Part shown: piece by piece, positions 1 to 17,599 of the stretch
Position numbering within the stretch: the stretch's first letter is position 1
Layout: each line of letters starts with the position of its first letter
From: a virus
Virus genome (UHGV): UHGV-0168080
DNA length: 23,956 nt
Reading direction: 5' to 3' (one strand)
Notes under the pieces: generated by a model
What the model was told of the DNA's origin: nothing
Database searches by the model: none
Seen by the model: the letters and a program-made list of their open reading frames with translations, nothing else
Made by a program: the position numbers and the translations under genes

Positions 1-1
1 C

Positions 2-637
2 CAGATATTCATGAACGACGTGTTCCTGAAGCGCCTGACGGCCCCCACCATTACCAGCGGCGGCAATCCTCCGGCCTTTTCCCTGACACCGGACGGAAAG
101 CTGACTGCTAAAAATGCGGATATCAGTGGCAGTGTGAATGCGAACTCCGGGACGCTCAGTAATGTGACGATAGCTGAAAACTGTACGATAAACGGTACGC
201 TGAGGGCGGAAAAAATCGTCGGGGACATTGTAAAGGCGGCGAGCGCGGCTTTTCCGCGCCAGCGTGAAAGCAGTGTGGACTGGCCGTCAGGTACCCGTAC
301 TGTCACCGTGACCGATGACCATCCTTTTGATCGCCAGATAGTGGTGCTTCCGCTGACGTTTCGCGGAAGTAAGCGTACTGTCAGCGGCAGGACAACGTAT
401 TCGATGTGTTATCTGAAAGTACTGATGAACGGTGCGGTGATTTATGATGGCGCGGCGAACGAGGCGGTACAGGTGTTCTCCCGTATTGTTGACATGCCAG
501 CGGGTCGGGGAAACGTGATCCTGACGTTCACGCTTACGTCCACACGGCATTCGGCAGATATTCCGCCGGATACGTTTGCCAGCGATGTGCAGGTTATGGT
601 GATTAAGAAACAGGCGCTGGGCATCAGCGTGGTCTGA
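2..637 (+). CDS. J: Tail tip host-specificity protein J, C-terminal receptor-binding fragment (5' end lies outside the window)
   Basis: Open frame runs from the window edge; the translation (ending ...[17 protein letters not shown]) matches my recollection of the lambda J C-terminus, and lom follows directly as in lambda. Confidence 0.8.
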
Positions 638-698
638 GTGTGTTACAGAGGTTCGTCCGGGAACGGGCGTTTTATTATAAAACAGTGAGAGGTGAACG

Positions 699-1319
699 AT
701 GCGTAATGTGTGTATTGCCGTTGCTGTCTTTGCCGCACTTGCGGTGACAGTCACTCCGGCCCGTGCGGAAGGTGGACATGGTACGTTTACGGTGGGCTAT
801 TTTCAGGTGAAACCGGGTACATTGCCGTCGTTGTCGGGCGGGGATACCGGTGTGAGTCATCTGAAAGGGATTAACGTGAAGTACCGTTATGAGCTGACGG
901 ACAGTGTGGGGGTGATGGCTTCCCTGGGGTTCGCCGCGTCGAAAAAGAGCAGCACAGTGATGACCGGGGAGGATACGTTTCACTATGAGAGCCTGCGTGG
1001 ACGTTATGTGAGCGTGATGGCCGGACCGGTTTTACAAATCAGTAAGCAGGTCAGTGCGTACGCCATGGCCGGAGTGGCTCACAGTCGGTGGTCCGGCAGT
1101 ACAAGGGATTACCGTAAGACGGAAATCACTCCCGGGTATATGAAAGAGACGACCACCGCCAGGGACGAAAGTGCAATGCGGCATACCTCAGTGGCGTGGA
1201 GTGCAGGTATACAGATTAATCCGGCAGCGTCCGTCGTTGTTGATATTGCTTATGAAGGCTCCGGCAGTGGCGACTGGCGTACTGACGGATTCATCGTTGG
1301 GGTCGGTTATAAATTCTGA
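699..1319 (+). CDS. lom: Outer-membrane beta-barrel protein Lom (Ail/Lom family)
   Basis: 206 aa with an N-terminal signal peptide (MRNVCIAVAVFAALAVTVTPARA) and a C-terminal ...GVGYKF beta-barrel end; sits in the lambda position between J and stf. Confidence 0.9.
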   Translation: MRNVCIAVAVFAALAVTVTPARAEGGHGTFTVGYFQVKPGTLPSLSGGDTGVSHLKGINVKYRYELTDSVGVMASLGFAASKKSSTVMTGEDTFHYESLRGRYVSVMAGPVLQISKQVSAYAMAGVAHSRWSGSTRDYRKTEITPGYMKETTTARDESAMRHTSVAWSAGIQINPAASVVVDIAYEGSGSGDWRTDGFIVGVGYKF

Positions 1320-1383
1320 TTAGCCAGGTAACACAGTGTTATGACAGCCCGCCGGAACCGGTGGGCTTTTTTGTGGGGTGAAT

Positions 1384-4215
1384 ATGGCAGTAAAAATTTC
1401 AGGAGTCCTGAAAGACGGCACAGGAAAACCGGTACAGAACTGCACCATTCAGCTGAAAGCCAGACGTAACAGCACCACGGTGGTGGTGAACACGGTGGGC
1501 TCAGAGAATCCGGATGAAGCCGGGCGTTACAGCATGGATGTGGAGTACGGTCAGTACAGTGTCATCCTGCAGGTTGACGGTTTTCCACCATCGCACGCCG
1601 GGACCATCACCGTGTATGAAGATTCACAACCGGGGACGCTGAATGATTTTCTCTGTGCCATGACGGAGGATGATGCCCGGCCGGAGGTGCTGCGTCGTCT
1701 TGAACTGATGGTGGAAGAGGTGGCGCGTAACGCGTCCGTGGTGGCACAGAGTACGGCAGACGCGAAGAAATCAGCCGGCGATGCCAGTGCATCAGCTGCT
1801 CAGGTCGCGGCCCTTGTGACTGATGCAACTGACTCAGCACGCGCCGCCAGCACGTCCGCCGGACAGGCTGCATCGTCAGCTCAGGAAGCGTCCTCCGGCG
1901 CAGAAGCGGCATCAGCAAAGGCCACTGAAGCGGAAAAAAGTGCCGCAGCCGCAGAGTCCTCAAAAAACGCGGCGGCCACCAGTGCCGGTGCGGCGAAAAC
2001 GTCAGAAACGAATGCTGCAGCGTCACAACAATCAGCAGCCACTTCTGCATCCACCGCGACCACGAAAGCGTCAGAAGCTGCCACCTCAGCCCGGGATGCG
2101 TCGGCTTCAAAAGAGGCGGCAAAATCATCAGAAACGAGCGCAGCCTCGAGCGCCAGTAGTGCAGCTTCCTCGGCTACGGCGGCAGGCAATTCCGCGAAGG
2201 CGGCAAAAACGTCCGAGACGAACGCCAAGGCTTCTGAAACAGCAGCGGAACAGAGTGCCTCCGCAGCAGCAGGCTCAAAAACAGCGGCTGCGTCGTCCGC
2301 CAGTGCCGCGTCAACAAGTGCCGGGCAGGCCTCAGCCAGTGCTAGCGCCGCCGGAAAATCGGCAGAAAGCGCCGCATCGTCCGCTTCAACAGCCACAACG
2401 AAGGCTGGCGAAGCCACTGAACAGGCCAGTGCAGCAGCGAGGTCTGCTTCCGCAGCGAAGACATCCGAGACGAACGCGAAAGCGTCGGAAACCAGCGCAG
2501 AATCCTCAAAAACGGCTGCCGCATCGTCCGCCAGTTCGGCGGCGTCATCGGCCTCATCGGCGTCTGCTTCAAAAGATGAGGCGACCAGACAGGCGTCCGC
2601 AGCGAAGGGCAGCGCCACGACAGCATCCACGAAGGCGACAGAGGCAGCTGGTAGTGCGACGGCAGCAGCTCAGAGCAAAAGTACGGCGGAATCCGCGGCA
2701 ACGCGCGCTGAGACAGCGGCAAAACGGGCAGAGGATATTGCATCCGCCGTGGCGCTTGAGGATGCGAGCACGACGAAAAAGGGGATAGTACAGCTCAGCA
2801 GTGCGACCAACAGCACTTCCGAGTCACAGGCGGCAACGCCAAAAGCCGTTAAGGCCGCGTATGACCTGGCTAACGGGAAATACACCGCACAGGATGCAAC
2901 GACAGCACAGAAAGGGATAATCCAGCTAAGCAGCGCGACCAACAGCACATCTGAAACGCTTGCCGCGACACCGAAAGCAGTGAAAGCAGCTAATGACAAT
3001 GCGAATGGTCGGGTACCTTCTGCCCGTAAGGTGAATGGTAAGGCGCTTTCAGCGGATATAACACTGACACCGAAAGATATTGGTACGCTTAACTCAACAA
3101 CAATGTCATTCAGCGGTGGTGCTGGTTGGTTCAAATTAGCAACGGTAACCATGCCACAGGCGAGTTCTGTTGTTTCAATTACGTTGATTGGTGGCGCTGG
3201 ATATAACGTCGGTTCACCTCAACAGGCAGGTATATCTGAACTTGTTTTGCGTGCAGGTAATGGTAATCCGAAGGGGATTACTGGTGCTTTATGGCAGCGC
3301 ACATCGACAGGGTTTACAAATTTTGCCTGGGTCAATACATCTGGTGATACTTACGATATTTACGTTGCAATCGGAAATTATGCGACTGGTGTAAATATTC
3401 AATGGGATTATACCAGTAATGCCAGCGTGACGATTCATACGTCACCAGCATATTCTGCTAATAAGCCGGAAGGGTTAACGGACGGTACAGTTTATTCACT
3501 CTATACGCCATCAGAGCAGTTTTATCCGCCTGGCGCACCAATCCCGTGGCCATCAGATACCGTTCCGTCTGGCTATGCCCTGATGCAGGGGCAGACTTTT
3601 GACAAATCTGCATACCCGAAACTTGCAGCCGCTTATCCGTCAGGCGTGATCCCTGATATGCGTGGCTGGACGATTAAGGGCAAACCTGCCAGTGGTCGGG
3701 CCGTATTGTCTCAGGAACAGGACGGCATTAAATCGCACACCCACAGCGCCAGCGCATCCAGTACGGATTTGGGGACGAAAAACACATCGTCGTTTGATTA
3801 CGGAACCAAATCCACGAATAACACCGGGGCGCATACCCATAGTATTAGCGGGACTGCAAATAGTGCCGGTGCGCACCAACACAAGAGTTCCGGTGCATTT
3901 GGTGGCACGAACACGAGCATTTTCCCTAATGGTTATACCGCGATTTCAAATCTAAGCGCGGGGATTATGAGCACAACAAGCGGTAGTGGCCAGACTCGTA
4001 ATGCAGGGAAGACATCATCAGATGGTGCTCATACCCACTCGCTGTCCGGCACTGCTGCAAGCGCAGGCGCACATGCACATACTGTCGGTATTGGTGCTCA
4101 TACGCACTCCGTTGCGATTGGTTCACATGGACACACCATCACCGTTAACGCTGCTGGTAACGCGGAAAACACCGTCAAAAACATCGCATTTAACTATATT
4201 GTGAGGCTTGCATAA
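1384..4215 (+). CDS. stf: Side tail fibre protein Stf, with an extended Ala/Ser-rich repeat shaft and His-rich C-terminal tip
   Basis: N-terminus [26 protein letters not shown]... is lambda Stf-like; the ATG at 1384 is preferred over the upstream in-frame GTG at 1378. Contains a duplicated KGI(V/I)[20 protein letters not shown] motif and C-terminal GAHTHS/GAHAHT/GSHGHT repeats. Confidence 0.85.
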
Positions 4216-4790
4216 TGGCATTCAGAATGAGTGAACAACCACGGACCATAAAAATTTATAATCTGCTGGCCGGAACTAATGAATTTATTGGTGAAGGTGA
4301 CGCATACATTCCGCCTCATACAGGTCTGCCAGCAAACAGTACCGATATTGCACCGCCAGATATTCCGGCTGGCTTCGTGGCTGTTTTCAACAGTGATGAT
4401 GCATCGTGGCATCTTGTTGAAGACCATCGGGGTAAAACAGTTTATGACGTGGCATCAGGGGACGCGTTATTTATTTCTGAACTCGGTCCGTTACCGGAAA
4501 ATGTTACCTGGTTATCGCCGGAAGGGGAATATCAGAAGTGGAACGGCACAGCCTGGGTGAAAGATGCAGAAGCAGAAAAACTATTCCGGATCCGGGAGGC
4601 GGAAGAAACAAAAAACAGCCTGATGCAGGTAGCCAGTGAGCATATTGCGCCGCTTCAGGATGCGGTAGATCTTGAGATCGCAACGGAGGAAGAGAAATCG
4701 TTACTGGCCGCATGGAAGACATATCGGGTGTTGTTGAATCGTGTTGATACATCACTATCTCCAGATATCGAGTGGCCAAGTCAACCATAA
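4215..4790 (+). CDS. tfa: Tail fibre assembly protein Tfa
   Basis: 191 aa, lambda Tfa-like ([48 protein letters not shown]...); the start overlaps the stf stop (TAATG). Confidence 0.9.
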
Positions 4791-4822: not shown

Positions 4823-5788
4823 TTAATTATCAGTAGATTGTTCCTCTAGTAACAACTCAATTTTGCTTAGTATTTCTTTAGATATTTTGCGGCTATCAAT
4901 TTTTATAGTTACAAAATTCCCTTTATATCTAGCCGTGATCCCTTCCCCATATTTTTTCTCGTCTTTTGTTTTTTCCTCGTCGCCAACCAGAACAGAGTCA
5001 GATAATATTTGTATAATCCGTGAAGCTTCTAAATCCTCGCCGTTTTTTTTTATTGTCAGAAGATGATGAGCAGCATTGCTCATGGCAGCCATGTTTTTTT
5101 TGTAAATCTTAAACAAAGAATCTCCAGCACGAGCTGACAGTTCTCCTGGATGATTGAAGATAGCTAATATATCTTTTGGTAGACCAGCTGTATTAATACA
5201 GCGAGTGATAATATTTCTATCTATATTTTCAGCCTCGGCCAATGCTTTAACGTTACCATCAAAGTCATTTAGCTTGCGTAAGTATCTCTTTCCTCTTTCG
5301 TATGCACTAATAGGCCTATAATCGTTACCAATTTGGGATAACCAATGCATCTGTTCATCGTCGAGATCACCAATTAAGACGCGATAGTCACATCCTGTTA
5401 ATATCGCTGCTTTTCTTCTACGTGAGCCGTCAGCGACTTCAACGATTCCAGATACTTTTCTGGCGAAAGCTGGATTTTGTTGTCCAGACGTTAGAAAAGA
5501 TGGGATTAAATCGGCTAGAGAGGATTCATTTAATAAATCTTGATCGCGTTCATTACCTAGCCATACCATTGTTGCCATTTCAACTTTATCTGCGGGAATT
5601 GTCTCTAACTTAAAGTTAACATTACGTCCGCATACTGGCAAAGTTATGCTGTTACCGGTTAATGAACTCAGTTGACGTTTTAAATCACCAACCATAGGTG
5701 ATACGGGCTGATGTTCAGGGGCATGATGATTATTACTCATAATGCGATTAATATCTGGAGCATTTTTTAGAAGAGAGCGCTGTTTCAT
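4823..5788 (-). CDS. sopB: Plasmid partition protein SopB (ParB family centromere-binding protein)
   Basis: 321 aa with F SopB-like blocks (ITLPVCGRNVNF, LGNERDQDLL, DGSRRRKAAILT, YRPISAYERG); start overlaps the sopA stop. Confidence 0.9.
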   Translation of the reverse strand: MKQRSLLKNAPDINRIMSNNHHAPEHQPVSPMVGDLKRQLSSLTGNSITLPVCGRNVNFKLETIPADKVEMATMVWLGNERDQDLLNESSLADLIPSFLTSGQQNPAFARKVSGIVEVADGSRRRKAAILTGCDYRVLIGDLDDEQMHWLSQIGNDYRPISAYERGKRYLRKLNDFDGNVKALAEAENIDRNIITRCINTAGLPKDILAIFNHPGELSARAGDSLFKIYKKNMAAMSNAAHHLLTIKKNGEDLEASRIIQILSDSVLVGDEEKTKDEKKYGEGITARYKGNFVTIKIDSRKISKEILSKIELLLEEQSTDN

Positions 5789-6954
5789 TATTCGTTCTCC
5801 CAGCGAGGTTTTATTAGATCATCAAAAATTTCTCTGCAAACAGGGTCCCATATAGAAACAGCATTTCTCCATGCATTCAATGTTGAACGTTGGTTTGCTG
5901 CTTGTTCAAATACTGTTCTCATTTTTATCTGGCCTTTACCTACTTCATCGGTAACGCGTACAACCTGACGTAATACCATTGATCCCCATGTATTTCTTAT
6001 TTGTTCTTCCATCCATCGTGATTGATTCCCTGTAGTGAGACTATATTTAGTCAGAAGTAAGCGAACGGTTGGCTCAAATCCACCTAGGTCAACGCTTTCC
6101 AATAGATCGAGAAGCATTGTGAAAAACTGTAGAACAGAAGCGTAATCAAATAATTCTGCAGGTGTAGCAACAACAATAACGTCAGCGGCACAAACAACGT
6201 TAATGGTTCCTGTACCGAGGTTCGGAGCACTATCTATAACGATAACATCGTAGTTATCCCAAACTGATTCAATAGCTGCGCGCAGCATAAGGTGTGGAGG
6301 ATGAGGCAATTTACCCTGAGCATGATATTGCATGAGATCTGTTTCTATACGATGTAAAGCTAGGCAGCTAGGGATAATGTCTAGCCCAGGCCAACATGTT
6401 GGCTTTATAGCATATTCAGCGTTATCGCGTTCTCCTAAGTAAAATGGCAGTAAAGTATCCTCGGCATGGATATGTAAATCAGGAACATAACCGTGATACA
6501 TAGAGGCTGTACCTTGAGGATCGTTACCTTCAACCAAAAGAACACGATGACCTTGTAATGCTAACCATTGAGCTTGATGTACCGCAGACGATGTTTTATA
6601 AACGCCGCCTTTGTGTGACATAACGGCAAGAACAACAGGGTTTTTATCTTGTGGTCGTTGGTTTGGGTTGCCAAAAACTGCTCGCATACTGTTGATTTGA
6701 TCTATGGTATAACCAGCACGACGTTCAATTCTTCCTCTCATTTCAAAGTCAGGTGCAGGTAAACGCCCGCTCTTCTCAGCATCTCTAATTGCTTGAGGAG
6801 TTACACCAATTAAATCTGCTACTTCAGTAATACCCCATCGGCGGGTGATACGCCGAGCTTCAGGACTATCATCACCGAATTGAGCGATAGCAATTGCTTG
6901 GGTCATTTCTTGACCTCTCGTAACACAATCTTGCAATAGCTTTTTCAAAGACAT
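5788..6954 (-). CDS. sopA: Plasmid partition ATPase SopA (type Ia ParA)
   Basis: 388 aa, collinear with F SopA as I recall it; deviant Walker A KGGVYKTS; N-terminal HTH extension (AIAIAQFGDDSPEARRITRRW); RBS GGAG upstream. Confidence 0.95.
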   Translation of the reverse strand: MSLKKLLQDCVTRGQEMTQAIAIAQFGDDSPEARRITRRWGITEVADLIGVTPQAIRDAEKSGRLPAPDFEMRGRIERRAGYTIDQINSMRAVFGNPNQRPQDKNPVVLAVMSHKGGVYKTSSAVHQAQWLALQGHRVLLVEGNDPQGTASMYHGYVPDLHIHAEDTLLPFYLGERDNAEYAIKPTCWPGLDIIPSCLALHRIETDLMQYHAQGKLPHPPHLMLRAAIESVWDNYDVIVIDSAPNLGTGTINVVCAADVIVVATPAELFDYASVLQFFTMLLDLLESVDLGGFEPTVRLLLTKYSLTTGNQSRWMEEQIRNTWGSMVLRQVVRVTDEVGKGQIKMRTVFEQAANQRSTLNAWRNAVSIWDPVCREIFDDLIKPRWENE

Positions 6955-7603: not shown

Positions 7604-9493
7604 ATGAGCAAAGTAAAAATCGGTGAATTAATAAACTCACTTGTTAGCGATGTTGAGTCAATAGATAACTCTGACCGTCCTCAAGGAGAGAAAACAAAAA
7701 AAATAAAGGCCGTTGCATTAAAATTTAAAAATACATTATTTAATGATAAGCGAAAGTTTAGGGGAAAAGGATTAGAAAAGAGAATTACAGCCAACACATT
7801 CAATTCCTATATGAGCAGGGCCAGAAAACGGTTTGATGATAAACTTCATCATAGTTTTGAAAAAAATATACATCGACTATCTGAAAAATATCCTTTATAT
7901 AATGAGGAGCTATTGTCATGGCTCTCTCTACCTGCTGCCGATATTCGCCGGAGAATGTCAGCTTTACAGGCAAAATTAAAATTAATTATTCCTCTGTCCG
8001 AAGATTTATCTAATATCAGAATTGGTGATAATAAAAATAATAATAAGTTAATAAAGTTATCAAATAAATATAAAGAATGGCAATTTGCCATTTCTGATTT
8101 AACTAGCGATAACTGGAAAGATAAACGCGATTATTTATATAAATTACTACAGCAAGGGTCAGCCTTGCTTGAGGAGTTGAATCAGTTAAAGGTTAACCAT
8201 GAGATTCTCTATCATCTCAAACTAAGCCCTGCCGAACGCGCATCTATCCAGCAACGATGGGCGGACGTACTACACAATAAGAAACGTAACGTAGTAGTCA
8301 TTGACTACCCTAAATATATGCAAGCTATTTACGATATTATAAATAGCCCTGCTACATTAAATAATCTAAACACTCGTTCAGGCATGGCTCCTTTGGCATT
8401 TGCTCTTGCTGCATTATCAGGAAGACGAATGATTGAGATTATGTATCAAGGTACATTTACTGTCTCTGGTAAGTATACCGTTGATTTTTTAGGTCAGGCT
8501 AAAAAAAGAACTACTGATGATGTAACCAGAAAAATATATACATTATGCGAAGCAAAAACGTTTGTTTATTTAATAAATGTACTTCGCTCATGCCCAGCAG
8601 CATCTGATTTTGATGAAGTCGTTATGGGTTACGGAAATAACGACACGCGGTCTGAAAACGGACGTATTAATGCCATATTGGCAAAGGCTTTTAATCCATG
8701 GGTTAAATCATTTTTCAATGATAATCGCCGTGTTTATAAAGATAGTCGTGCTATTTATGCCCGTATTGCGTATGAAATGTTTTTCCGCGTAGATCCCCGT
8801 TGGAAAAATGTAGATGAAGATGTTTTCTTTATGGAAATTTTAGGCCATGACGATGAAAACACTCAATTACACTATAAACAATTCAAGCTGGCCAACTTCT
8901 CAAAGACATGGAGGCCAAATACTGGAAACGAAAATACCAGGCTGGAAGCATTGCAGCTGCTTGATGACGAAATGCCTGGATTCGCCAGAGGAGATGCCGG
9001 GGTTCGTCTGCATAACACAGTTAAGCAGCTGGTAGAGCAGGACCCCTCTATAAAAATCACGAACAGCACTCTAAGAGCATTCAAATTTAGCCCAACAATG
9101 ATTAGTCGATACCTGGAATTTGCTGCTGATGCTCTGGGGCAATTTGTTGGCGAAAATGGACAATGGCAGCTGAAAATAGATACTCCAGAAATCGTTATGC
9201 CTGACGAAGAAGAGCTGGAAGCAATACCTGAACAGATGGATGAATTATCAGAGGATGACGATCTGGATGACGACGAAATTGAGATAGAGGAAGAGGAAGA
9301 GAGCGTAGAAGAACAGCAACCGCCAGCGCCTTCTTCACCTGTATCTAAGCCGGTATTTAAGCCTGTGAGAAATATTGGTGATGGCTCATACGTTGTTGAG
9401 TTTCATTATAATGGCCAGAATTATGCGTGGTCAGGCAGTGCAAACAGCCCCATGTCAGCAATGCAGTTAGCATGGCTGACATATTTCGGCTAA
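7604..9493 (+). CDS. telN: Protelomerase TelN (hairpin telomere resolvase)
   Basis: 629 aa; near-collinear with N15 TelN from the N-terminus (MSKVKIGELIN...DRPQG.KTK.IKA...NDKRKFRGKGL.KRITANTFN.YMSRARKRFDDKLHHSF) to the C-terminus; acidic C-terminal tail; RBS AGGAGAAG. Confidence 0.95.
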   Translation: MSKVKIGELINSLVSDVESIDNSDRPQGEKTKKIKAVALKFKNTLFNDKRKFRGKGLEKRITANTFNSYMSRARKRFDDKLHHSFEKNIHRLSEKYPLYNEELLSWLSLPAADIRRRMSALQAKLKLIIPLSEDLSNIRIGDNKNNNKLIKLSNKYKEWQFAISDLTSDNWKDKRDYLYKLLQQGSALLEELNQLKVNHEILYHLKLSPAERASIQQRWADVLHNKKRNVVVIDYPKYMQAIYDIINSPATLNNLNTRSGMAPLAFALAALSGRRMIEIMYQGTFTVSGKYTVDFLGQAKKRTTDDVTRKIYTLCEAKTFVYLINVLRSCPAASDFDEVVMGYGNNDTRSENGRINAILAKAFNPWVKSFFNDNRRVYKDSRAIYARIAYEMFFRVDPRWKNVDEDVFFMEILGHDDENTQLHYKQFKLANFSKTWRPNTGNENTRLEALQLLDDEMPGFARGDAGVRLHNTVKQLVEQDPSIKITNSTLRAFKFSPTMISRYLEFAADALGQFVGENGQWQLKIDTPEIVMPDEEELEAIPEQMDELSEDDDLDDDEIEIEEEEESVEEQQPPAPSSPVSKPVFKPVRNIGDGSYVVEFHYNGQNYAWSGSANSPMSAMQLAWLTYFG

Positions 9494-9665: not shown

Positions 9666-10448
9666 CTATTTATTGGTGATTTCTGCTGGCTTTAGCTGCG
9701 CGGATAACTGCTCAAGTTTTTGAACTGCCAGTTCAAAATGCGCGGGCAACGCCTTTTCCAGATCAGAGTTAATATCGGTGATGGGCAAATCACCACACGA
9801 CATACTCCGCCTACCCCCACGAACAACATCACGCAACAACTCTCGTTCATACGTGCGCATGTTCCCCAATGCCGACTCAGCAGCCGTTAAAATCCGGCGC
9901 AGTTCTGCCGTAATTGCTGGTAAATCATCAACCGTTATGGGGTTCGGGGATGGATTACGACACGCCCGACGCAAAGCCAACCATACACCGCTAATCCAGG
10001 CATTTCGGTACTGAAAACTTTGTGCTATATCGTTGATCAGCCCTCGCAGATACTCTTTCTGCCTCCAGTTCAACGGCTCTGCTGCTCGCATTGGCTCAGG
10101 TTCGACGTAAACGTACTCTCCATTCTTACGAATAGAGGGCAGGACCTCGTTCGTTACCCATTTACGAAACCGCCATGCAGTCGTGCCCTGTTTTACAGCG
10201 TCACGGCAGCGGAGGATCAGGGTGTATAGACCTGACTCTGAAATAATATTTAGCTTTTGCTCTCCGCCAGGGGTGTAACTTAAAGTTACACCCTTTTCAT
10301 CCTCATCCAGAGACATTAGCGCCTTCCGGGAGTTAACGAGTCTTAAAGCATCACATACATCCTTAGCCACAAACCACGGCTCGCCGTTAATCATCACTAC
10401 ACGAACCTGATGCTCTTCCTGAAAGGAAAAGACTGCTAACGCGCTCAT
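9666..10448 (-). CDS. Bro-N domain antirepressor (Ant-like)
   Basis: 260 aa; N-terminal Bro-N hallmarks (F.F......VRVVMINGEPWFVAKDVCDAL...LDEDEKG...GGEQKLNIISESGLYTLIL); strong RBS AAGGAGG; last gene of a three-gene operon with ATGA overlaps. Confidence 0.8.
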   Translation of the reverse strand: MSALAVFSFQEEHQVRVVMINGEPWFVAKDVCDALRLVNSRKALMSLDEDEKGVTLSYTPGGEQKLNIISESGLYTLILRCRDAVKQGTTAWRFRKWVTNEVLPSIRKNGEYVYVEPEPMRAAEPLNWRQKEYLRGLINDIAQSFQYRNAWISGVWLALRRACRNPSPNPITVDDLPAITAELRRILTAAESALGNMRTYERELLRDVVRGGRRSMSCGDLPITDINSDLEKALPAHFELAVQKLEQLSAQLKPAEITNK

Positions 10449-10675
10449 TCAGCCTCCTTACCCAGCAATTGCGACGAGAGCGACGCGGAATACCCCTGTG
10501 CTTCATGAGTTAACTCACACGCGATTTGAAGGAGCTTCCCGGCTTCTGATAGATAAATCGACGCCTCACAGCTGGATACTGTCCGATGGGCTGATGATAC
10601 GAGCGCATAGACCTGAGCCAGACGTTCATCCAACGACTCCAGCAGGCCAACAGTGTTCATTTTTACCTGATTCAT
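10445..10675 (-). CDS. Small protein of the antirepressor operon (function unknown)
   Basis: 76 aa; RBS GAGGTGG; start overlaps the upstream stop and stop overlaps the ant start. Confidence 0.6.
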   Translation of the reverse strand: MNQVKMNTVGLLESLDERLAQVYALVSSAHRTVSSCEASIYLSEAGKLLQIACELTHEAQGYSASLSSQLLGKEAE

Positions 10676-10836
10676 ACAGCCACCTCGCGCACCGGAATAC
10701 GGGCAGACAATACCAGGACAAACCGGCTGGCGAACTGGCGACGAGCTTCCCGTTCAGATGACGCGATGGTGGAAAGATGATGGATGTGTGACTTTTTGTC
10801 TGTGCGAACGACTGCCGCAAATTTGAATTTGAACAT
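10672..10836 (-). CDS. Small first gene of the antirepressor operon (54 aa; Icd-like by position only)
   Basis: Not in the supplied ORF track (under 60 aa). Read by hand on the minus strand: MFKFKFAAVVRTDKKSHIHHLSTIASSEREARRQFASRFVLVLSARIPVREVAV; GGAG RBS; its stop overlaps the next start (ATGA). Confidence 0.45.
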   Translation of the reverse strand: MFKFKFAAVVRTDKKSHIHHLSTIASSEREARRQFASRFVLVLSARIPVREVAV

Positions 10837-10891
10837 GGTATGCACTCCGTTTAATTGGTCGTGCTACCACCAGAGTTCTCACGCTCTTGAA

Positions 10892-10973
10892 TGGTGGTAG
10901 CCCAAGCGGGGGTGAGAATACCGGCAAACGAAGAAACCGGCCTGACCGAAGTCAGCCCCGCCTGAGCCACCAT
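10892..10973 (-). ncRNA. Structured RNA-like element A in the antirepressor operon leader (candidate c4/CA-type antisense immunity RNA or its target module)
   Basis: About 82 nt bounded by GGTGG...CCACCA; minus-strand fold gives a long closing stem and an internal hairpin CUGAC-UUCG-GUCAG. Paralogue of element B. Confidence 0.45.
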
Positions 10974-11207
10974 AAATCGGATATGCGCAGGTATATACAC
11001 ACAAAAAAACACGCTGGCGCGTGTTGTGCGCTTCGTTTATCCGGGTTCTCACGCCCGGCTGCGGGATTTACCGCAGCGGAATAACTTTACCGTCAAAACG
11101 ACGCACACGTCAATAATTTGCAAAGACATTTTACCCTGTGACCAGTCACGGGGATAGGTGTTTTTATAGTTTGCTTAAACAAATGATTAGAAGATAAACG
11201 ATATTGT

Positions 11208-11287
11208 GGTGGTAGCCCAGGCAGGGTTCTCAACACCGGCCCAAACGACACCGGCCAGCCTTTCGGCTGCCCCGCCTGAACTACCAT
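11208..11287 (-). ncRNA. Structured RNA-like element B, paralogue of element A
   Basis: Same architecture and end motifs (GGTGGTAGCCCA...CCCCGCCTGA); the internal hairpin is CAGCC-GAAA-GGCUG on the minus strand, so the stem is kept by compensatory changes. Confidence 0.45.
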
Positions 11288-11390
11288 TAGAATAATATAC
11301 AACAAAACGTAGCATTTTTATTACATTAAAATATAAATATTGTTTACACTTTACTTTACTAATGGGGCGGCTCGGGCTATCCTGATTTTG

Positions 11391-11406
11391 CTGTATAAAA
11401 ACACAG
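11391..11406. promoter_or_regulatory. LexA (SOS) box CTGTATAAAAACACAG upstream of cma
   Basis: Fits CTGT-N8-ACAG; lies about 60 bp upstream of the colicin M ATG, as is usual for colicin promoters. Confidence 0.6.
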
Positions 11407-11467
11407 TATTTATGCAGCGATTAAACCTGTATGTCTGTTATTTCATTAACTTATAAGGGTTTTTGAT

Positions 11468-12283
11468 ATGGATACTATCGTTGTGACAGCTCCATCACCA
11501 TCAACTAACTTACCGAGTTATGGTAATGGCGCATTTTCTCTCTCAGCACCACACGTGCCTGGTTCTGGCCCCCTTTTAGTCCAGGTGGTTTACAGCTTTT
11601 TCCAGAGCCCAAACATGTGTATTCAGGCTCTAACTCAGCTTGAGGACTACATCAAAAAACACGGTGCCAGCGATCCCCTGACATTACAAATTATGTCAAC
11701 AAATATTGCCTACTTCTGTAACGCTGACAGAAACCTTATCCTTCACCGCGGAATAAGTGTTTATGACGCCTACCACTTAGCTAAACCTGCGCCAAATAAA
11801 TATGACTATCGCTCAATGAATATGAAACAAATGAGCGGTAATGTCACAACACCAATTGTGGCGCTTGCACACTATTTATGGGGTAATGGTGCAGACCGAA
11901 GCGTTAATATCGCAAATATTGGTCTCAAAATTTCTCCGATGAAAATTAATCAGATAAGAGATATTGTAAAATCTGGTGTAGTAGGCACATTCCCTATTTC
12001 TACAAAATTCACACACGCCACTGGCGATTATAATGTTATTACCGGCGCATATCTTGGTAATATCACGCTGAAAACAGAAGGTACTTTAACTGTCTCCGCT
12101 AATGGCTCATGGACCTATAATGGCGTTGTTCGCTCGTATAACGACAAGTATGACTTCAATGCCAGCACTCATCGTGGCGTAATCGGAGAGTCTCTTACAA
12201 GGCTCGGGGCGATGTTCTCTGGTAAAGAGTATCAGATACTACTTCCTGGCGAAATTCACATTAAAGAAAGTGGCAAGCGATAA
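11468..12283 (+). CDS. cma: Colicin M (lipid II-targeting bacteriocin)
   Basis: 271 aa, same length as colicin M and collinear with it as I recall the sequence (..APSPSTNLPSYGNGAFSLSAPHVPG.GPLLVQVVYSFFQSPNMC.QALTQLEDYIKKHGAS ... ILLPGEIHIKESGKR). Confidence 0.93.
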   Translation: MDTIVVTAPSPSTNLPSYGNGAFSLSAPHVPGSGPLLVQVVYSFFQSPNMCIQALTQLEDYIKKHGASDPLTLQIMSTNIAYFCNADRNLILHRGISVYDAYHLAKPAPNKYDYRSMNMKQMSGNVTTPIVALAHYLWGNGADRSVNIANIGLKISPMKINQIRDIVKSGVVGTFPISTKFTHATGDYNVITGAYLGNITLKTEGTLTVSANGSWTYNGVVRSYNDKYDFNASTHRGVIGESLTRLGAMFSGKEYQILLPGEIHIKESGKR

Positions 12284-12284
12284 T

Positions 12285-12311
12285 AAAAAGGCCGGGATTC
12301 CGGCCTTTTTT
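12285..12311. terminator. Bidirectional intrinsic terminator between cma and cmi
   Basis: AAAAA-GGCCGG-GATT-CCGGCC-TTTTTT: GC stem with an A-tract before and a T-tract after. Confidence 0.75.
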
Positions 12312-12333
12312 ATGCAGTCTTTATACCGATGTA

Positions 12334-12690
12334 TCAATCATTTGCATATTCAACATAACCTTCCTTGCAATGGTACATTCCATAATACATTCTCTTACCT
12401 TCCGGGCCTTCGGCTTTAAATGGGACGAGAAGCGTTTTTTCATCTTTAACATCTGTTAAGCTTCTTTCAATCTTTTCCCACGTAATTTTTGGGGCTTCTG
12501 TACCGAGAAGTTGTACATCGTTATTCCAACGCGTTATTTTTTTCAAAAAGTCATTTTTTACAAATTCTCTTGCCTGTTCATCACTAACCTTATAGCACTC
12601 TGGGCCTTTATTAGATTCAGGCCAGAAAAATACAATAGCAAGAGCAATAATTGATAAAATCAAAATGATTTTTATGCTAATTACTTTCAT
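12334..12690 (-). CDS. cmi: Colicin M immunity protein Cmi
   Basis: 118 aa; N-terminal membrane anchor (ILILSIIALAIVFFW) and strong resemblance to Cmi (..YKVSDEQAREFVKND....WNNDVQLLGTE.PKITWEKIERSLTDV.DEKTLLVPFKAEGP.GKRMYYGMYHC.EGYVEYAND); convergent with cma. Confidence 0.9.
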   Translation of the reverse strand: MKVISIKIILILSIIALAIVFFWPESNKGPECYKVSDEQAREFVKNDFLKKITRWNNDVQLLGTEAPKITWEKIERSLTDVKDEKTLLVPFKAEGPEGKRMYYGMYHCKEGYVEYAND

Positions 12691-12817
12691 AAAATCTCCA
12701 TCACCTTAAAAGCAAAACATACATATTTAGCCTTCATATTGTATGAGTATATCAATACAGTGTGTGCTTAATGTGAAGTAAAATTAACAATATATAAACA
12801 TTTAATATGCCGCGCAC

Positions 12818-13213
12818 TTAGTCGGCTTTATGAGTATCAACCATATACTTCAACCAGTAATCAACAATCGGTTGCTCATCTACAGAATGTTTACCAGGTA
12901 TAACTCGCCAGCTATCTTGCGAAAATCTGCCGTACTTACGCGGGAATAGGCCTTTCTTTATCTCCCGCCATGTACTAGGAAAACCATCCACAAAAGTACC
13001 AATTAACAGGAGAGGGACAAAAATCAGAGCTACAAACCATCGTGCAAGAAAGTGTTCAACAACAACATTTTCACCGTTGTAGTAATACGCATACGCATCC
13101 AATATGCGAATTTTCCTTACCTTAAAAATAGCCTTATGCTGAGAACGACTTAACTTGATACGAATGTATCCCTTATCCAAAGGGGATTCGTATTTGTATG
13201 ATTGAACAGCCAT
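12818..13213 (-). CDS. Hypothetical protein with one predicted transmembrane helix (function unknown)
   Basis: ATG at 13213 lies 2 nt after the upstream stop (the ORF-track start at 13225 is an in-frame GTG); hydrophobic segment FLARWFVALIFVPLLLIGTFV; I recognise no family. Confidence 0.6.
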   Translation of the reverse strand: MAVQSYKYESPLDKGYIRIKLSRSQHKAIFKVRKIRILDAYAYYYNGENVVVEHFLARWFVALIFVPLLLIGTFVDGFPSTWREIKKGLFPRKYGRFSQDSWRVIPGKHSVDEQPIVDYWLKYMVDTHKAD

Positions 13214-13215
13214 TT

Positions 13216-13545
13216 TTAACCCCACTCACCATCAGCAAACAAAGCGTTATACTCTGATAATGGTAAATGATGCCCCTCAATTGCCAGATTAAGCCCCAAA
13301 TGGGTAGATGGGTGTTCCTTATCTGGCTCCTCCTCCCACAATTCAGAAGCTAAAGAAGCTAAACGCTCAGCCGCTTTCACGTAGTTTTCTGTCCTGAACC
13401 AACCCAAATTAATCCCACCATCAGTGATCTCCCAGGCAACTTTCTTCTCTTCTTCCTGAATAGCCTTAATGCGTCGATCGCATTCATCCCGGCAGAACTT
13501 CAGCTGACGGTAATCAAGTTTGTCCAAAAATGCAGTAGTAGACAT
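13216..13545 (-). CDS. Hypothetical acidic protein (function unknown), first gene of a coupled pair
   Basis: 109 aa; RBS GGAG 8 nt upstream; lies immediately downstream of repA on the same strand; I recognise no family. Confidence 0.65.
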   Translation of the reverse strand: MSTTAFLDKLDYRQLKFCRDECDRRIKAIQEEEKKVAWEITDGGINLGWFRTENYVKAAERLASLASELWEEEPDKEHPSTHLGLNLAIEGHHLPLSEYNALFADGEWG

Positions 13546-13603
13546 ATTTTTACTCCCCGTTCACCGAAAAATCACGATTTCCACATACGATAATATCCAC
13601 TGA

Positions 13604-16600
13604 TTACCCATAGAAAGCGCCCTGCTCTTCGTAGCTGCATGGGCTATTCCCGGTAATATATTCACGTAACCGCCGCAGTTCATTACTGGACAAGTGATCC
13701 ATGAACTCTGTTAGGTACAGAGATGCAAACGTCATAGCTATGCTGGCTGATGACCATGATGACATAGTGGCCAGCTCCTCACAGGAAAGCGCACTCATAG
13801 CCCAGGACTCAGGTACAGCCACCGGCAACACTGCCAAAGCCTCAGAAATTACTGAATGAGGGGCGTTTTGAACCTGCTCATTTGTGGATCGCGTTTTATC
13901 ATCCATATATATATTGAGATCCAAATCGCGATCCATTTCGATGGCGGTCTTCTCGGCTTTGCGCGTTTTCAGGGTTAGGCCATCTTTCTGACGCTGAGCA
14001 AGAATATCCAGCATAAATGCCGCTGATTCAGGCTCAACAAAACGCAAGGTTGGACGCTTATCGCCGTCTCTGCCACGACGTTTACCTGTTTTAAGGCCAA
14101 GAGAGTCGCAAATGTTTTTAAACAACGCTTCCGGCACTTTAGGCTTCCCTTTTGGCGTCATAAAACCACCAATGTGCAGAACGTTATTCAACAGGTCACG
14201 GCGTTCGGCTGTCATGAGGTTATCTCGAGCGAATTTGAGACGCTCCTGAGTCGCCTCGCCGGTCATAGTCTCAGGGTTGATACCGCAGTCGATAAAGTAC
14301 TGCCGGAGAGTTGCTGATTTAAGCGCATAGAAACCGCGCGCCCCGACTTCAACAGTAGGAGTAGCTTTTACCTTGTAGTCGATTATTCCAGGGAATTTAG
14401 TTTTAAAGACATCATCAGCCTGCTCGCGAGTCATCGCGGTCACTACAAAATATTGCCACTGTCCCGCCTGACGGTATGCGTAGGTAAAATTGATGGCTGC
14501 TTCTTCCCGGTCGTAACGACGAGCTGTTACCTCATCTAAAAGCATTGTTTCATAGCGGCGAACTTTGTCTCGAGCACCATCGAAATAGAATTTCAGCGTG
14601 CCTTCTTCAACCGGTAGTTTCAGTTCGTTCTCAATATCCCAGCGGACAAGTTTTGCCTGTTCTTCAAGCGTCAGCGCGCGTTTTTTTAGCAGTTCTTCAC
14701 GCTCTGATTCTTGTGGAGTTTCTGTATTGAGATGCAGATCCAGTGTCTGTTCCCACACAATATCCCGCGCTTCTTTACGCAGATCTTTACCGATATCATT
14801 CGCAGCATAATCGGTGGCCAGCGGCGATACCTTATAACCGTCGCTGTGCATGATGCAGATCATGTTGCTGGCGTAGTCGTTACGCGCAGACGCTTCAATT
14901 GCGGCTGCTTTAATTTTCATCCTGGTAAAGTCGGTATTGGCCACCCCCATTGATATACGGTCGCCATCGAAAACGACATCCGTCAGTTCACCGTTCATGC
15001 CTGCGGTAGCAAGCAATGCCTGGGCGAATGCTCGTTCTATTTTTTGCGGGTCAGTTTCACGTTTTGCGCGAGCTTTATCAAAGCCGATAATAAATTCTTT
15101 TGCTGTACGGTCGCGGCGTAGCATTTGCACTGCGTCGCTGGGTACAACTTCACCACAGAACATGCCGAAATGACGGTCAAAATGTTTTTGCTCAATCGAC
15201 ACGCCGGATGAAATAGACGGGCTATAAATCAGGCCGTCGTATTTTTTGACCATCTTTTTCGGTTGATTGGTAAATGCTTCAACTTCTGGCTCTGGTTTGT
15301 TTTTCTGGTTTACACACAGAAATTTCTTACCAGGAAAATGCATTCTCAGGGTGGCGGTCACATCTTCTGCAAAGGTGGAGCTGTCGGTGGCCAACATAAT
15401 TTTTTCGCCATCCGATACAGCTTTCACCACCTCGGTCATAATGCGATCTTTTTCTGTATAAAAAACCCGGATTGGCTCACCTGTTTCGCGGTTGCGAACA
15501 TCAACAGGTAATTCAATTACGTGGATCTGCAGCCATGCGGGTAAACCGAGTTCTTCGCGGCGTTTCATAGCCAGTTCAGCCAGGTCAACCAGCAGATCGT
15601 TCGCATCAGCATCCACCATGATTGGGTGTTGTTCCGTTCTGGCCAGCGCATCAATTAGCGTATTGAATACAGCCACCGGGTTTTCCATAGCCCGACCGGA
15701 AAGAACGGCACGTAGCCCTTGTGTTGCCTCGTCAAAGCCAAAATAGTCGTGCTGGCGCATCAACGGTTGCCAGCAGTTTTTAACAATCGAGTTTATGCAG
15801 ATGGTCAGTTTACTGGCGTATGGGGCCATTTCCTGATAGCCAGGGTCCTGATAGTGCAGGATATCGGCTTTTACACCTTTTCCTTCAGTCATCATTTCCC
15901 ACAGACCACCAATAAGGGAAACACGGTGAGCTACAGAGATACCACGTTCTGAGCTATGCATTAACGGTCGTAACAATCCAGTAGATTTGCCGGAACCCAT
16001 ACCAGCACGGACGATGACTATCCCCTGTAGTGATTGCACGTACTTCAGGACGTCATCGGTCATTACCGAAGTATCAAAACGCTTATAGGTGATATGTTGA
16101 GGGCGTTTATTGGGATCAGTTATGCGTTCGCTGAAAGAGCGCGGAGCCTGGGCAATACGGCACTTTTTATTCAGGCGACGGGCAATATGGTCTTTTACCG
16201 TAGCGCGATAGATATTTTCCAGCCCCATTTCACGCAGAACGATACAGAACATGTTAAATAAATCTGACGGGCTGTTAGGAACCGGACAGGTCAGCATGCC
16301 AATATCTACCGCTCTCAGCAGCTCTTTGGCAAAAGTACGGCGGTTATCCCGCTTAATTGTCTTCAGGCGGTTGAGTGTCAGAGATAGCAAATCAGTACCG
16401 GTTTTCAGGCGGTTTGCTGTTGCGAATAGTTGACGTGCTGTTTCACGAAGTCCACGTAGTTTGTGCAGGTCGTTGAAGTCACTGCACTCCATTTGCGGAT
16501 CGTCTTCAAAAGTTGGGTAGACGCAGCGGACATCGTTGAATTTAGATAAGATTTCATAGCCAGTCCGCAGGCCGGTATTCCCTTTTCCTTCTGTGGCAGA

Positions 16601-17599
16601 TTTCCGGTCATTATCCAGTGCGCAGGTGATTTTTGCCGCCGGGTACATGTTTACCAGTTGTTCCACAACATGAACCATGTTGTTAGCGGATACAGCGACA
16701 ACCACAGCGTCAAAGCGTTTATCTTTTTTCGTGGCAAGCCAGATGGATGCACCAGTAGCAAAACCTTCTGTAACAGCGATGTTTTGCGCCCCTTTCAGCT
16801 CACCGATAACAAAGCAGGCACCGACGAAATCGCCGCTGGTTACTGCGCTGGTCTGGTATTTCCCACCTTGTTTGTCGATTCGCTGCCAACCCACAATACG
16901 ACCATCATAACGACCGTCCAGGTGAGCCAGAGGGATAGCCATATATGTGGTTGGCCCCCGGCTCCATTTCGCACTGTCGTGACTGGTCACGCGACGCACA
17001 TCACATGAACTAAAAACGTCACGAATACCTTTTTTAATCGCATATGGCCATGAGCCGTCTTCAGCCTGAGCATGTTCCCACGCGCTGTGGAATGCCAGCC
17101 ATCCCAGCAAACGTTCATGGTCCATTTGGTTGTTTTTCAGGTCATTAATTCGTTTTTGTTCTTCACGGCGACGACGTGCTTCGGCCTGACGTTCTATTCT
17201 TTCCCGTTCTTCTTCCGGTTGTGCGACCACGGTCGCATTATTCCGTTGTTGCTCACGGCGATATTCAGAAAACAGGAAGGAGAAACCGCTCCATGAGCCA
17301 GCATCGCTGCCTTTATGGACGAAGTTAATGAACGGGTAATCAATCCCTTTGCTGTGTTCCAGCCTGGAGTAAATTTCTACGCGTCCTTTCAGGCTCTTTT
17401 CGAGAGCTTCTGGAGATGTTTTATTGTATGAAGAGTAACGCTCAACCCCCCCGCGAGGGTTGAGTTGGATGTTGTCGGAACAGGCAGGCCAGTTGATACC
17501 AGCCATCTGTGCCAGCTCGGTTAGTTCATCCCGTGCTGCTTCAATTAGCGAGAACGGATCGCTGCCAAAGCGATCCGCATAGAAATCGTTTAATGTCAT
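13604..17599 (-). CDS. repA: Replication protein RepA (multidomain primase-helicase, N15 RepA-like)
   Basis: 1331 aa; Walker A GMGSGKSTG inside a helicase-like core; size and position (upstream of cB, same strand) match N15 repA. Confidence 0.92.
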   Translation of the reverse strand: MTLNDFYADRFGSDPFSLIEAARDELTELAQMAGINWPACSDNIQLNPRGGVERYSSYNKTSPEALEKSLKGRVEIYSRLEHSKGIDYPFINFVHKGSDAGSWSGFSFLFSEYRREQQRNNATVVAQPEEERERIERQAEARRRREEQKRINDLKNNQMDHERLLGWLAFHSAWEHAQAEDGSWPYAIKKGIRDVFSSCDVRRVTSHDSAKWSRGPTTYMAIPLAHLDGRYDGRIVGWQRIDKQGGKYQTSAVTSGDFVGACFVIGELKGAQNIAVTEGFATGASIWLATKKDKRFDAVVVAVSANNMVHVVEQLVNMYPAAKITCALDNDRKSATEGKGNTGLRTGYEILSKFNDVRCVYPTFEDDPQMECSDFNDLHKLRGLRETARQLFATANRLKTGTDLLSLTLNRLKTIKRDNRRTFAKELLRAVDIGMLTCPVPNSPSDLFNMFCIVLREMGLENIYRATVKDHIARRLNKKCRIAQAPRSFSERITDPNKRPQHITYKRFDTSVMTDDVLKYVQSLQGIVIVRAGMGSGKSTGLLRPLMHSSERGISVAHRVSLIGGLWEMMTEGKGVKADILHYQDPGYQEMAPYASKLTICINSIVKNCWQPLMRQHDYFGFDEATQGLRAVLSGRAMENPVAVFNTLIDALARTEQHPIMVDADANDLLVDLAELAMKRREELGLPAWLQIHVIELPVDVRNRETGEPIRVFYTEKDRIMTEVVKAVSDGEKIMLATDSSTFAEDVTATLRMHFPGKKFLCVNQKNKPEPEVEAFTNQPKKMVKKYDGLIYSPSISSGVSIEQKHFDRHFGMFCGEVVPSDAVQMLRRDRTAKEFIIGFDKARAKRETDPQKIERAFAQALLATAGMNGELTDVVFDGDRISMGVANTDFTRMKIKAAAIEASARNDYASNMICIMHSDGYKVSPLATDYAANDIGKDLRKEARDIVWEQTLDLHLNTETPQESEREELLKKRALTLEEQAKLVRWDIENELKLPVEEGTLKFYFDGARDKVRRYETMLLDEVTARRYDREEAAINFTYAYRQAGQWQYFVVTAMTREQADDVFKTKFPGIIDYKVKATPTVEVGARGFYALKSATLRQYFIDCGINPETMTGEATQERLKFARDNLMTAERRDLLNNVLHIGGFMTPKGKPKVPEALFKNICDSLGLKTGKRRGRDGDKRPTLRFVEPESAAFMLDILAQRQKDGLTLKTRKAEKTAIEMDRDLDLNIYMDDKTRSTNEQVQNAPHSVISEALAVLPVAVPESWAMSALSCEELATMSSWSSASIAMTFASLYLTEFMDHLSSNELRRLREYITGNSPCSYEEQGAFYG
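13885..13935. other. Candidate internal replication origin element inside the 3' end of repA
   Basis: 9-bp inverted repeat TGGATCGCG (13885-13893) / CGCGATCCA (13927-13935) flanking an (AT)5 tract. Confidence 0.3.
17222..17237. repeat. sopC-like centromere box TGCGACC-AC-GGTCGCA (candidate SopB binding site) inside repA
   Basis: 16-bp palindrome with the same architecture as the F sopC core TGGGACC-AC-GGTCCCA. Confidence 0.5.

Follow-up and report, generated by a model that had tools for sequence, protein, structure and literature searches.

What do two small genes at the far end of a phage-plasmid replication operon do, and do they do it together? The question is raised by a 23,956-nucleotide (nt) stretch of the virus genome UHGV-0168080 (this whole stretch is called the window below), which is part of an Escherichia coli N15-type (Ravinvirus-like) linear phage-plasmid. 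Downstream of its repA gene lie two small open reading frames (ORFs), here named genes A and B, that a first-pass annotation had likened to superinfection-exclusion, abortive-infection or toxin-immunity modules and placed in an accessory slot. That hypothesis was largely not borne out. A and B are new members of known, catalogued families; nothing categorically new is described and nothing is overturned. Each gene also occurs alone, their alleles recombine independently, and neither matched PADLOC, Pfam, NCBIfam or the Protein Data Bank (PDB). They are probably independent accessory genes of the backbone and not paired as toxin and antitoxin, for immunity or for defence.

Two genuine genes at the end of the repA operon

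The operon opens with repA (13604–17599, minus strand), which encodes a CyRepA1-type primase-helicase/origin-binding protein of 1331 amino acids (aa; in relatives annotated as "plasmid replication protein, CyRepA1 family"), and A and B are its putative last genes. Gene A (13216–13545 including the stop codon, minus strand) follows the end of repA after 58 nt on the same strand and encodes an acidic 109-aa protein (pI 4.85; 22 Asp plus Glu against 13 Lys plus Arg). Gene B (12818–13213 including the stop codon, minus strand) encodes a basic 131-aa protein (pI 9.67) that is predicted to be a small membrane protein. The stop codon of A and the start codon of B are separated by a 2-nt spacer (TAA-AA-ATG, 13211–13218, minus strand; GGT TAA AA ATG with its preceding codon), with the B ATG at 13213 and a Shine-Dalgarno-like GTGGGG within the last codons of A. 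An alternative GTG start four codons upstream would make B overlap the stop codon of A. A consensus scan of the minus strand from repA through A and B returned no promoter-like or terminator-like site. The layout described by the first-pass annotation, two tightly packed genes 2 nt apart downstream of repA on the same strand, was therefore confirmed at the level of the ORFs and their junction, and so was the single predicted membrane segment of the 131-aa protein. This hydrophobic stretch spans residues ~56–78 (12980–13048, minus strand; LARWFVALIFVPLLLIGTFVDGF; Kyte-Doolittle 2.27 over 19 aa) and includes the family-conserved Pro67 and Gly77.

Both genes are under purifying selection, with ratios of nonsynonymous to synonymous substitution rates (dN/dS) against relatives of 0.09–0.15 for A and 0.32–0.54 for B. 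Because of these low values, the full-length PHROG matches described below and the many homologues (dozens for A and 138 representative clusters for B), A and B are genuine genes and not chance ORFs. Their GC content is not distinguishable from that of the backbone, and Rfam placed no RNA element inside the A/B region.

Gene A and the N15 gp35 family

The first-pass annotation had recognised neither protein family and had named clear homology to conserved N15-family genes as evidence that would overturn its reading. Essentially such homology was seen for A. It matched PHROG 10878 over residues 1–105 (E 4e-41) and aligned over its full length with the repA-distal N15 protein gp35 (NP_046930.1) at 57–63% identity (57.4% over 99% of the query by tblastn). 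N15 gp35 shares with A its length (109 aa) and its same-strand position after repA, and both end in an invariant C-terminus, ...LF(A/S)DG(Q/E)WG, that stops just short of the next start codon. An alignment of 28 family sequences had a mean column identity of 77% and 34 invariant columns. On both sequence and position, A is a member of the gp35 family. AlphaFold2 gave a poor model of the motif with the highest conservation, KKVAWAVTDGGIN.GWFRTEDY, and this may possibly reflect an interface with a partner or within an oligomer.

This RepA type was found in 230 PLSDB records (176 from Klebsiella and 28 from Escherichia), and tblastn detected A homologues in 115 PLSDB plasmids (Klebsiella 76, Escherichia 26, Enterobacter 6, Salmonella 4, Citrobacter 2, Shigella 1). 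All 115 are non-mobilizable, and among the matches listed most are ~46–57 kb. Judged from these counts, A appears near-universal in the Escherichia lineage (26 A against 28 RepA records) and missing from roughly every second Klebsiella element. All elements in which it was found are N15-type telomere phage-plasmids with this RepA, and every locus examined (the window, N15, PhiR46_1, KpLi5, NAR688, MStein, Pseudocitrobacter, MSB1_8A and 12 IMG/VR loci) has it immediately after repA in the same orientation. The genome-collection scan for A returned one locus only.

Pfam, NCBIfam and PADLOC gave no match for A or B, searches of PDB sequences with each single protein and with each family profile returned none below E 0.05, and among PHROGs both fall only in families of "unknown function". 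The statement of the first-pass annotation that no function could be assigned to the two genes thus held, since no characterised family was matched. In the literature searched there was no functional statement on N15 genes 33–36, gp35 included, or on DUF5448. Several candidate relationships of A were rejected. By hhalign, A is not akin to N15 gp34 (Prob 0.2%), nor is it the counterpart of P4 Cnr/ORF106, a small regulator beside a related primase-helicase (Prob 0.2%). The protein called "gp35" among those detected for NAR688 is no A homologue either, being the product of a RelE/ParE gene of that phage.

A more distant relative is possible. In phiKO2-like plasmids a member of DUF5448 (PF17526) holds the place of A directly before B, and hhalign aligned this protein with the A family over 82 columns (Prob 95%, E 3e-8). 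A second DUF5448 protein gave a weak result (Prob 18%), and part of the signal comes from a near-identical N-terminus (MSTT.F..KLD) that may be recombinational. The Pfam DUF5448 model did not match A at E≤1, nor the N15, NAR688 and MSB1_8A homologues at E≤10, so that A falls outside DUF5448 by the Pfam gathering threshold.

The gene order around A differs between elements. N15 has repA(37)-gp36-gp35-gp34-gp33-terminator, with gp36 between repA and gp35; the window is without gp36 and carries B in place of gp34 and gp33. The interval between repA and A is variable: gp36 (82–90 aa) is present in N15, KpLi5, MStein and YDC107_1, and NAR688, Pseudocitrobacter and MSB1_8A have a 68–71-aa protein whose gene overlaps the repA end and which has a hydrophobic helix at its N-terminus (5627–5875 in the N15 locus L001, 3308–3514 in locus L015 and 2703–2918 in locus L011). 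In the window this interval (13546–13603) is just 58 nt and holds no gene. PhiR46_1-type elements have a small extra ORF that overlaps the end of repA, which the window lacks.

Gene B and PHROG 15458

B matched PHROG 15458 over its full length (residues 1–131, E 1.7e-88). HMMER, run exhaustively against 1.84 billion cluster representatives (E≤1e-3), gave a family of 138 clusters at 50% identity, mostly of 110–130 aa. All 118 aligned relatives matched PHROG 15458, and a Pfam scan of the same 118 found no shared family; a word-indexed profile search gained few sequences. The family signature consists of Y.Y..P...GY....(K/R)..HN..F..R, YEYY, an uncharged stretch of ~25 residues that contains a conserved Pro and ends in Gly, and (Q/R)KKYG.F..D. 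Around its hydrophobic segment B carries the near-invariant residues Y6, Y8, P11, G15, H26, F30, Y43, P67, G77, G95, F97 and D100. Going by the full-length profile and these motifs, B is a member of PHROG 15458. The telomere-phage branch of the family has a ~25-residue C-terminal extension that is missing in most members. PHROG 15458 is catalogued and uncurated, with no Pfam model, no solved structure and no fold relative.

The AlphaFold2 model of B had a mean predicted local distance difference test score (pLDDT) of 73.7. In this model a strand at residues 98–102, which corresponds to the post-membrane motif, follows three N-terminal strands, and both a single-pass and a monotopic or hairpin topology are compatible with it. 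A search with the model returned no PDB fold match, and BFVD gave uncharacterised family members only. Of the structure prediction that the first-pass annotation had proposed as a check, this part could be used.

The N15 homology seen for A does not extend to B. The N15 proteins gp34 and gp33 occupy the same position as B, and BLASTP and hhalign were negative for a relationship with either. N15 gp33 (L001 4615–4965; homologues in L016 and L011) has a layout like that of B, with a soluble N-domain, a Pro-containing hydrophobic segment (RLWFVPLYLLTIPFQWLIRG) and a short tail, and like B it is the last gene; there was no detectable homology (hhalign Prob 2.7%), and gp33 and B may be analogous replacements.

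Relatives of B were found in diverse surroundings. B closes the repA block in telomere phages (the E. coli lineage, Enterobacter MStein, Klebsiella MSB1_8A-type, Yersinia P840 and phiKO2-like elements), and in Gorganvirus phages of Proteus the gene for a B relative and the end of the DNA polymerase gene overlap. On metagenomic and IMG/VR phage contigs, relatives lie among small early genes near PolIII-alpha/DnaG-DnaB/NrdD, with RNR/dUTPase/Dam, ThyA, NAD-ligase, Mom and HNH genes as other neighbours. In Salmonella CF-SP1 and one metagenomic phage the relative lies between terminase and portal or beside DUF551. Relatives of B have no constant partner gene, and A is missing outside the telomere phages.

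A and B assort independently

Of 5,426 complete E. coli genomes searched, 17 gave any match, and in 16 of these A and B were contiguous. Across the wider set of elements each gene was also found without the other. A occurs without B in N15 and KpLi5, where gp34 and gp33 follow it; in Pseudocitrobacter, where it is followed by DUF5448 and then a gp33-like gene; in NAR688, where it lies directly before ImmA/TelA; and in pS142-3, where only the first ~12 codons of B are left. Conversely, B follows gp36 in YDC107_1 and DUF5448 in Yersinia P840 and phiKO2-like plasmids, in each case without A, and is present without A in many unrelated phages. The first-pass annotation had suggested looking at the same position in relatives. 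N15 has A and lacks B, phiKO2-like elements have B and lack A, and the pairing is kept in Escherichia, some Klebsiella and Enterobacter. In E. coli pS142-3 (L017 2341–2484 and 3857–5005), a natural B-deletion variant, the A allele is 96% identical to that of the window and an IS200/IS605 transposase lies nearby.

The alleles of A and B do not vary together. Compared with p23GD35035_P4, the window is 97% identical in A and 82% in B; compared with PhiR46_1/pEC21Z151, it is 77% identical in A and 95% in B. In both comparisons the RepA C-termini are 99% identical. At synonymous sites the divergence (dS) from PhiR46_1 is 1.07 for A and 0.049 for B, a ~20-fold jump at the A/B boundary, and that from p23GD35035_P4 is 0.076 for A and 0.335 for B. 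Relative to L002, L004 and L006, A and the repA-A spacer (13216–13603) behave as a cassette that was swapped between near-identical flanks. Partners in a cognate toxin-antitoxin, toxin-immunity or sensor-effector system should be found together and vary together. Since A and B show neither obligate co-occurrence nor co-variation, they are best described as two separate accessory genes in one operon and not as a cognate pair.

The cargo slot begins after B

Pairwise blastn against six related elements showed that the window-specific cargo segment (11194–12825), which holds cmi, cma and the second copy of a C4 antisense RNA, starts a few bases past the stop codon of B, with homology to the relatives fading over about the last two sense codons of B. 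The accessory slot, in which the first-pass annotation had placed A and B, thus begins at the 3' end of B. In these alignments the backbone on this side ends with A and B, which frame the slot rather than lie inside it. This redraws the locus map of N15-type phage-plasmids, with the cargo hotspot beginning after B and not after repA. As a semi-conserved backbone framing a bacteriocin ("telocin") slot, A and B should help the annotation of elements that clinical E. coli and Klebsiella often carry.

The acquired colicin cargo that the first-pass annotation had noted is indeed next door. It consists of cma (11468–12283, plus strand), which encodes colicin M (Pfam Colicin_M, 8e-145), and the YebF-like immunity gene cmi (12334–12690, minus strand; Pfam YebF, 9e-8). 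The two genes are ~86.5% identical at the DNA level to copies on large E. coli plasmids, in which cmi is annotated as "colicin M immunity protein". A toxin-immunity role for A and B did not stand, as colicin immunity is already supplied by cmi. A or B as a colicin immunity or lysis gene was likewise rejected: the true cmi is a separate ORF, and A and B are shared with relatives that lack cma and cmi. No record in the phage, plasmid and complete E. coli genome collections covered ≥80% of positions 10400–13700, and the combination was not found elsewhere in them.

Rfam identified two copies of a C4 antisense RNA on the minus strand (10890–10977, 82 bits, and 11205–11291, 69 bits). They flank isrK (11004–11077, minus strand) and a c4-a1b1 target (11038–11090, minus strand). 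In alignments with relatives both copies match one and the same C4 locus, and the cargo segment has the second copy at its inner edge, which suggests duplication or recombination at C4 upon acquisition of the colicin cassette.

The slot of the relatives contains, after B, a 95-aa protein, a 270-aa hypothetical protein or, in Klebsiella, telocin:immunity cassettes. The 95-aa protein is present in most E. coli relatives (WP_001386898.1, PHROG 26765; L002, which is PhiR46_1, 6424–6711; L004 3316–3603; L006 3044–3331). The submitters of PhiR46_1 named it "Spackle exclusion protein", a name for which we found no independent support. In Klebsiella telomere phages the telocin locus lies between RepA and protelomerase (PMC12042878), and its architecture is like that of the window: RepA, an A homologue either alone or with a second small hypothetical gene, an immunity gene, an opposite-strand bacteriocin, icd/antirepressor and protelomerase. 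K. pneumoniae MSB1_8A has RepA, a small ORF, A, B and a pesticin-like muramidase, in that order. The annotation of NAR688 lists two hypothetical genes, gp48 and gp49, between RepA and ImmA (PMC12042878), and our ORF mapping identified gp49 as the A homologue. The published study characterises the telocin toxin/immunity cassette and not the hypothetical genes upstream of it. The cargo of the window, colicin M/Cmi, is an E. coli bacteriocin outside TelA–E that sits in the same slot as the Klebsiella telocins.

Possible roles of A and B

According to PMC4488713, CB binds OL operators upstream of repA, and, as that article cites Ziegelin 2005, repA by itself is the minimal replicon in PY54, which makes A and B accessory. 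In the reading we favour, a CB-repressor-controlled repA operon of an N15-type telomere phage-plasmid has A and B as its distal genes. From their position they would be co-transcribed with repA and translationally coupled, and would nevertheless have separate accessory functions. Control by CB would keep their expression low in lysogens and raise it after derepression. A, the more constrained of the two and found only with this RepA, would most plausibly be a modulator tied to the linear replicon or host interface, that is, a cytoplasmic, acidic and largely helical protein-binding modulator or adaptor. B comes from a phage-wide family found in early and DNA-metabolism clusters, and would most plausibly act at the cytoplasmic (inner) membrane whenever the replication operon is on, in exclusion or entry blocking or as a membrane tether. 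Any one specific biochemical role proposed for A or for B is unlikely to be the right one.

Small non-essential genes behind a main early function and under repressor control are familiar from the lambda PL operon (SieB, Kil, Ral) and from T4 (Imm, Sp), and some of their products are inner-membrane excluders. Superinfection exclusion may likewise be a role of B alone. The comparison is an analogy drawn from general knowledge, sequence or fold similarity to A or B not being detected, and B differs from exclusion proteins with an N-terminal anchor in that a ~55-residue basic N-terminal domain precedes its hydrophobic segment. The T4 exclusion gene imm is also located among DNA-metabolism genes, and the genomic context of B therefore does not discriminate between exclusion and a tether.

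Several observations weigh against two separately acting genes of the kind just described. The A-to-B order and a gap of 2–9 nt are kept even where B is only 30–36% identical (Klebsiella MSB1_8A-type and Enterobacter elements, in which A is 57–67% identical), and such persistent adjacency could reflect functional coupling and not mere operon packing. In a NAR688 lysogen nine phage proteins were detected, and gp48, gp49 and RepA were not among them (PMC12042878); with its A homologue undetected in that proteome, expression from the prophage may be very low. The topology of B is a further difficulty, as both flanks of the hydrophobic segment are net positive (N-domain +5.2, C-domain +2.4) and the C-flank has more Lys plus Arg than the N-flank. 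Finally, the AlphaFold2 model of A, with a mean pLDDT of 64, is confident only for an N-terminal helix (residues 3–41) and was too poor for a fold search, so that this part of the proposed structure prediction was unusable.

The adjacency of the two genes in three genera is also what a superinfection-exclusion or abortive-infection module would predict, with A as a soluble sensor or regulator and B as a membrane effector that blocks incoming phages. In such a module B would be a small membrane protein of an operon whose expression the lysogen requires; it evolves faster than A (dN/dS 0.3–0.5 against 0.1; identity 30–36% against 57–67%), and the neighbouring slot carries competition and exclusion cargo. 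However, PADLOC-DB v2 returned 0 families for A or B at E≤1, Pfam and NCBIfam gave no match, and no sequence or fold match was found to exclusion proteins of the T4 Imm/Sp, lambda SieB, P22 SieA or HK97 gp15 type. The two genes are each found alone and recombine independently, and the strong conservation of A and its linkage to repA are unlike usual defence cargo. Genes of the B family are also present on many unrelated phage contigs, some of them large, where abortive-infection systems would be unusual. We consider the exclusion module improbable. The same assortment data bear on a toxin-antitoxin or addiction pair, in which acidic antitoxin A would be encoded upstream of, and coupled to, basic membrane toxin B and would stabilise the plasmid prophage. 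Gene order, sizes, isoelectric points (4.85 vs 9.67) and tight coupling do resemble type II operons. Yet B is encoded without A in YDC107_1, P840, phiKO2-like elements and many phages, which a self-toxic protein would not tolerate, and A survives the deletion of B in pS142-3 and adjoins unrelated genes elsewhere. Obligate co-occurrence and co-variation of alleles were both absent, neither protein matched a toxin or antitoxin family, and the consensus scan found no autoregulated promoter before A; an addiction pair is very improbable.

A and B might also cooperate at the membrane when the linear plasmid replicates or segregates, with B as an anchor and A as a bridge to RepA or DNA; this would be analogous to, and not homologous with, phi29 p1/p16.7. 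Both genes are in the repA operon, A is found only with this RepA, and B-family genes lie beside replication or nucleotide-metabolism genes in most contexts sampled, one overlapping the end of a DNA polymerase gene. The basic flanks on both sides of the B segment fit a cytoplasm-facing monotopic anchor. Against such a role, repA alone is enough for replication in PY54, as far as Ziegelin 2005 is cited in PMC4488713. Roughly half of the RepA-bearing plasmids are without A and most are without B, A alleles that differ by 23% accompany 99%-identical RepA proteins, and some B genes lie between terminase and portal. The DNA-metabolism neighbourhood does not discriminate either, being equally that of T4 imm. 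A shared anchoring function is improbable on balance. A broader proposal would treat PHROG 15458 as a widespread and so far overlooked class of early phage membrane proteins that have a single conserved activity, either a new kind of block (entry or exclusion) or a tether that holds replicating DNA of phage or plasmid at the membrane; in telomere phages, A would be its lineage-specific cytoplasmic partner and link it to RepA. We regard this too as improbable. Separate accessory functions for A and B thus remain the reading we prefer, and the analysis flags two catalogued families that are so far uncharacterised, the gp35 family and PHROG 15458, the latter with at least 138 clusters at 50% identity in diverse phages.

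The host element

The partition genes sopB and sopA (4823–6954, minus strand) are followed in the window by the protelomerase gene (7604–9493, plus strand). Next come Icd-like genes and a block with a Bro-N antirepressor, after which lie cB, cro and Q. Its RepA is 99% identical to that of other E. coli N15-like plasmids. The nearest phage records are Escherichia phages YDC107_1 and PhiR46_1, with ~96% identity across about half of the window. The tail module J/lom/stf/tfa is lambda-like: positions 1–4790, which encode the J C-terminus, lom, stf and tfa, are ~97% identical to the module of phage lambda itself. The host-recognition module of this telomere phage, comprising tail tip and side fibres, is therefore of the lambda type and not that of N15.

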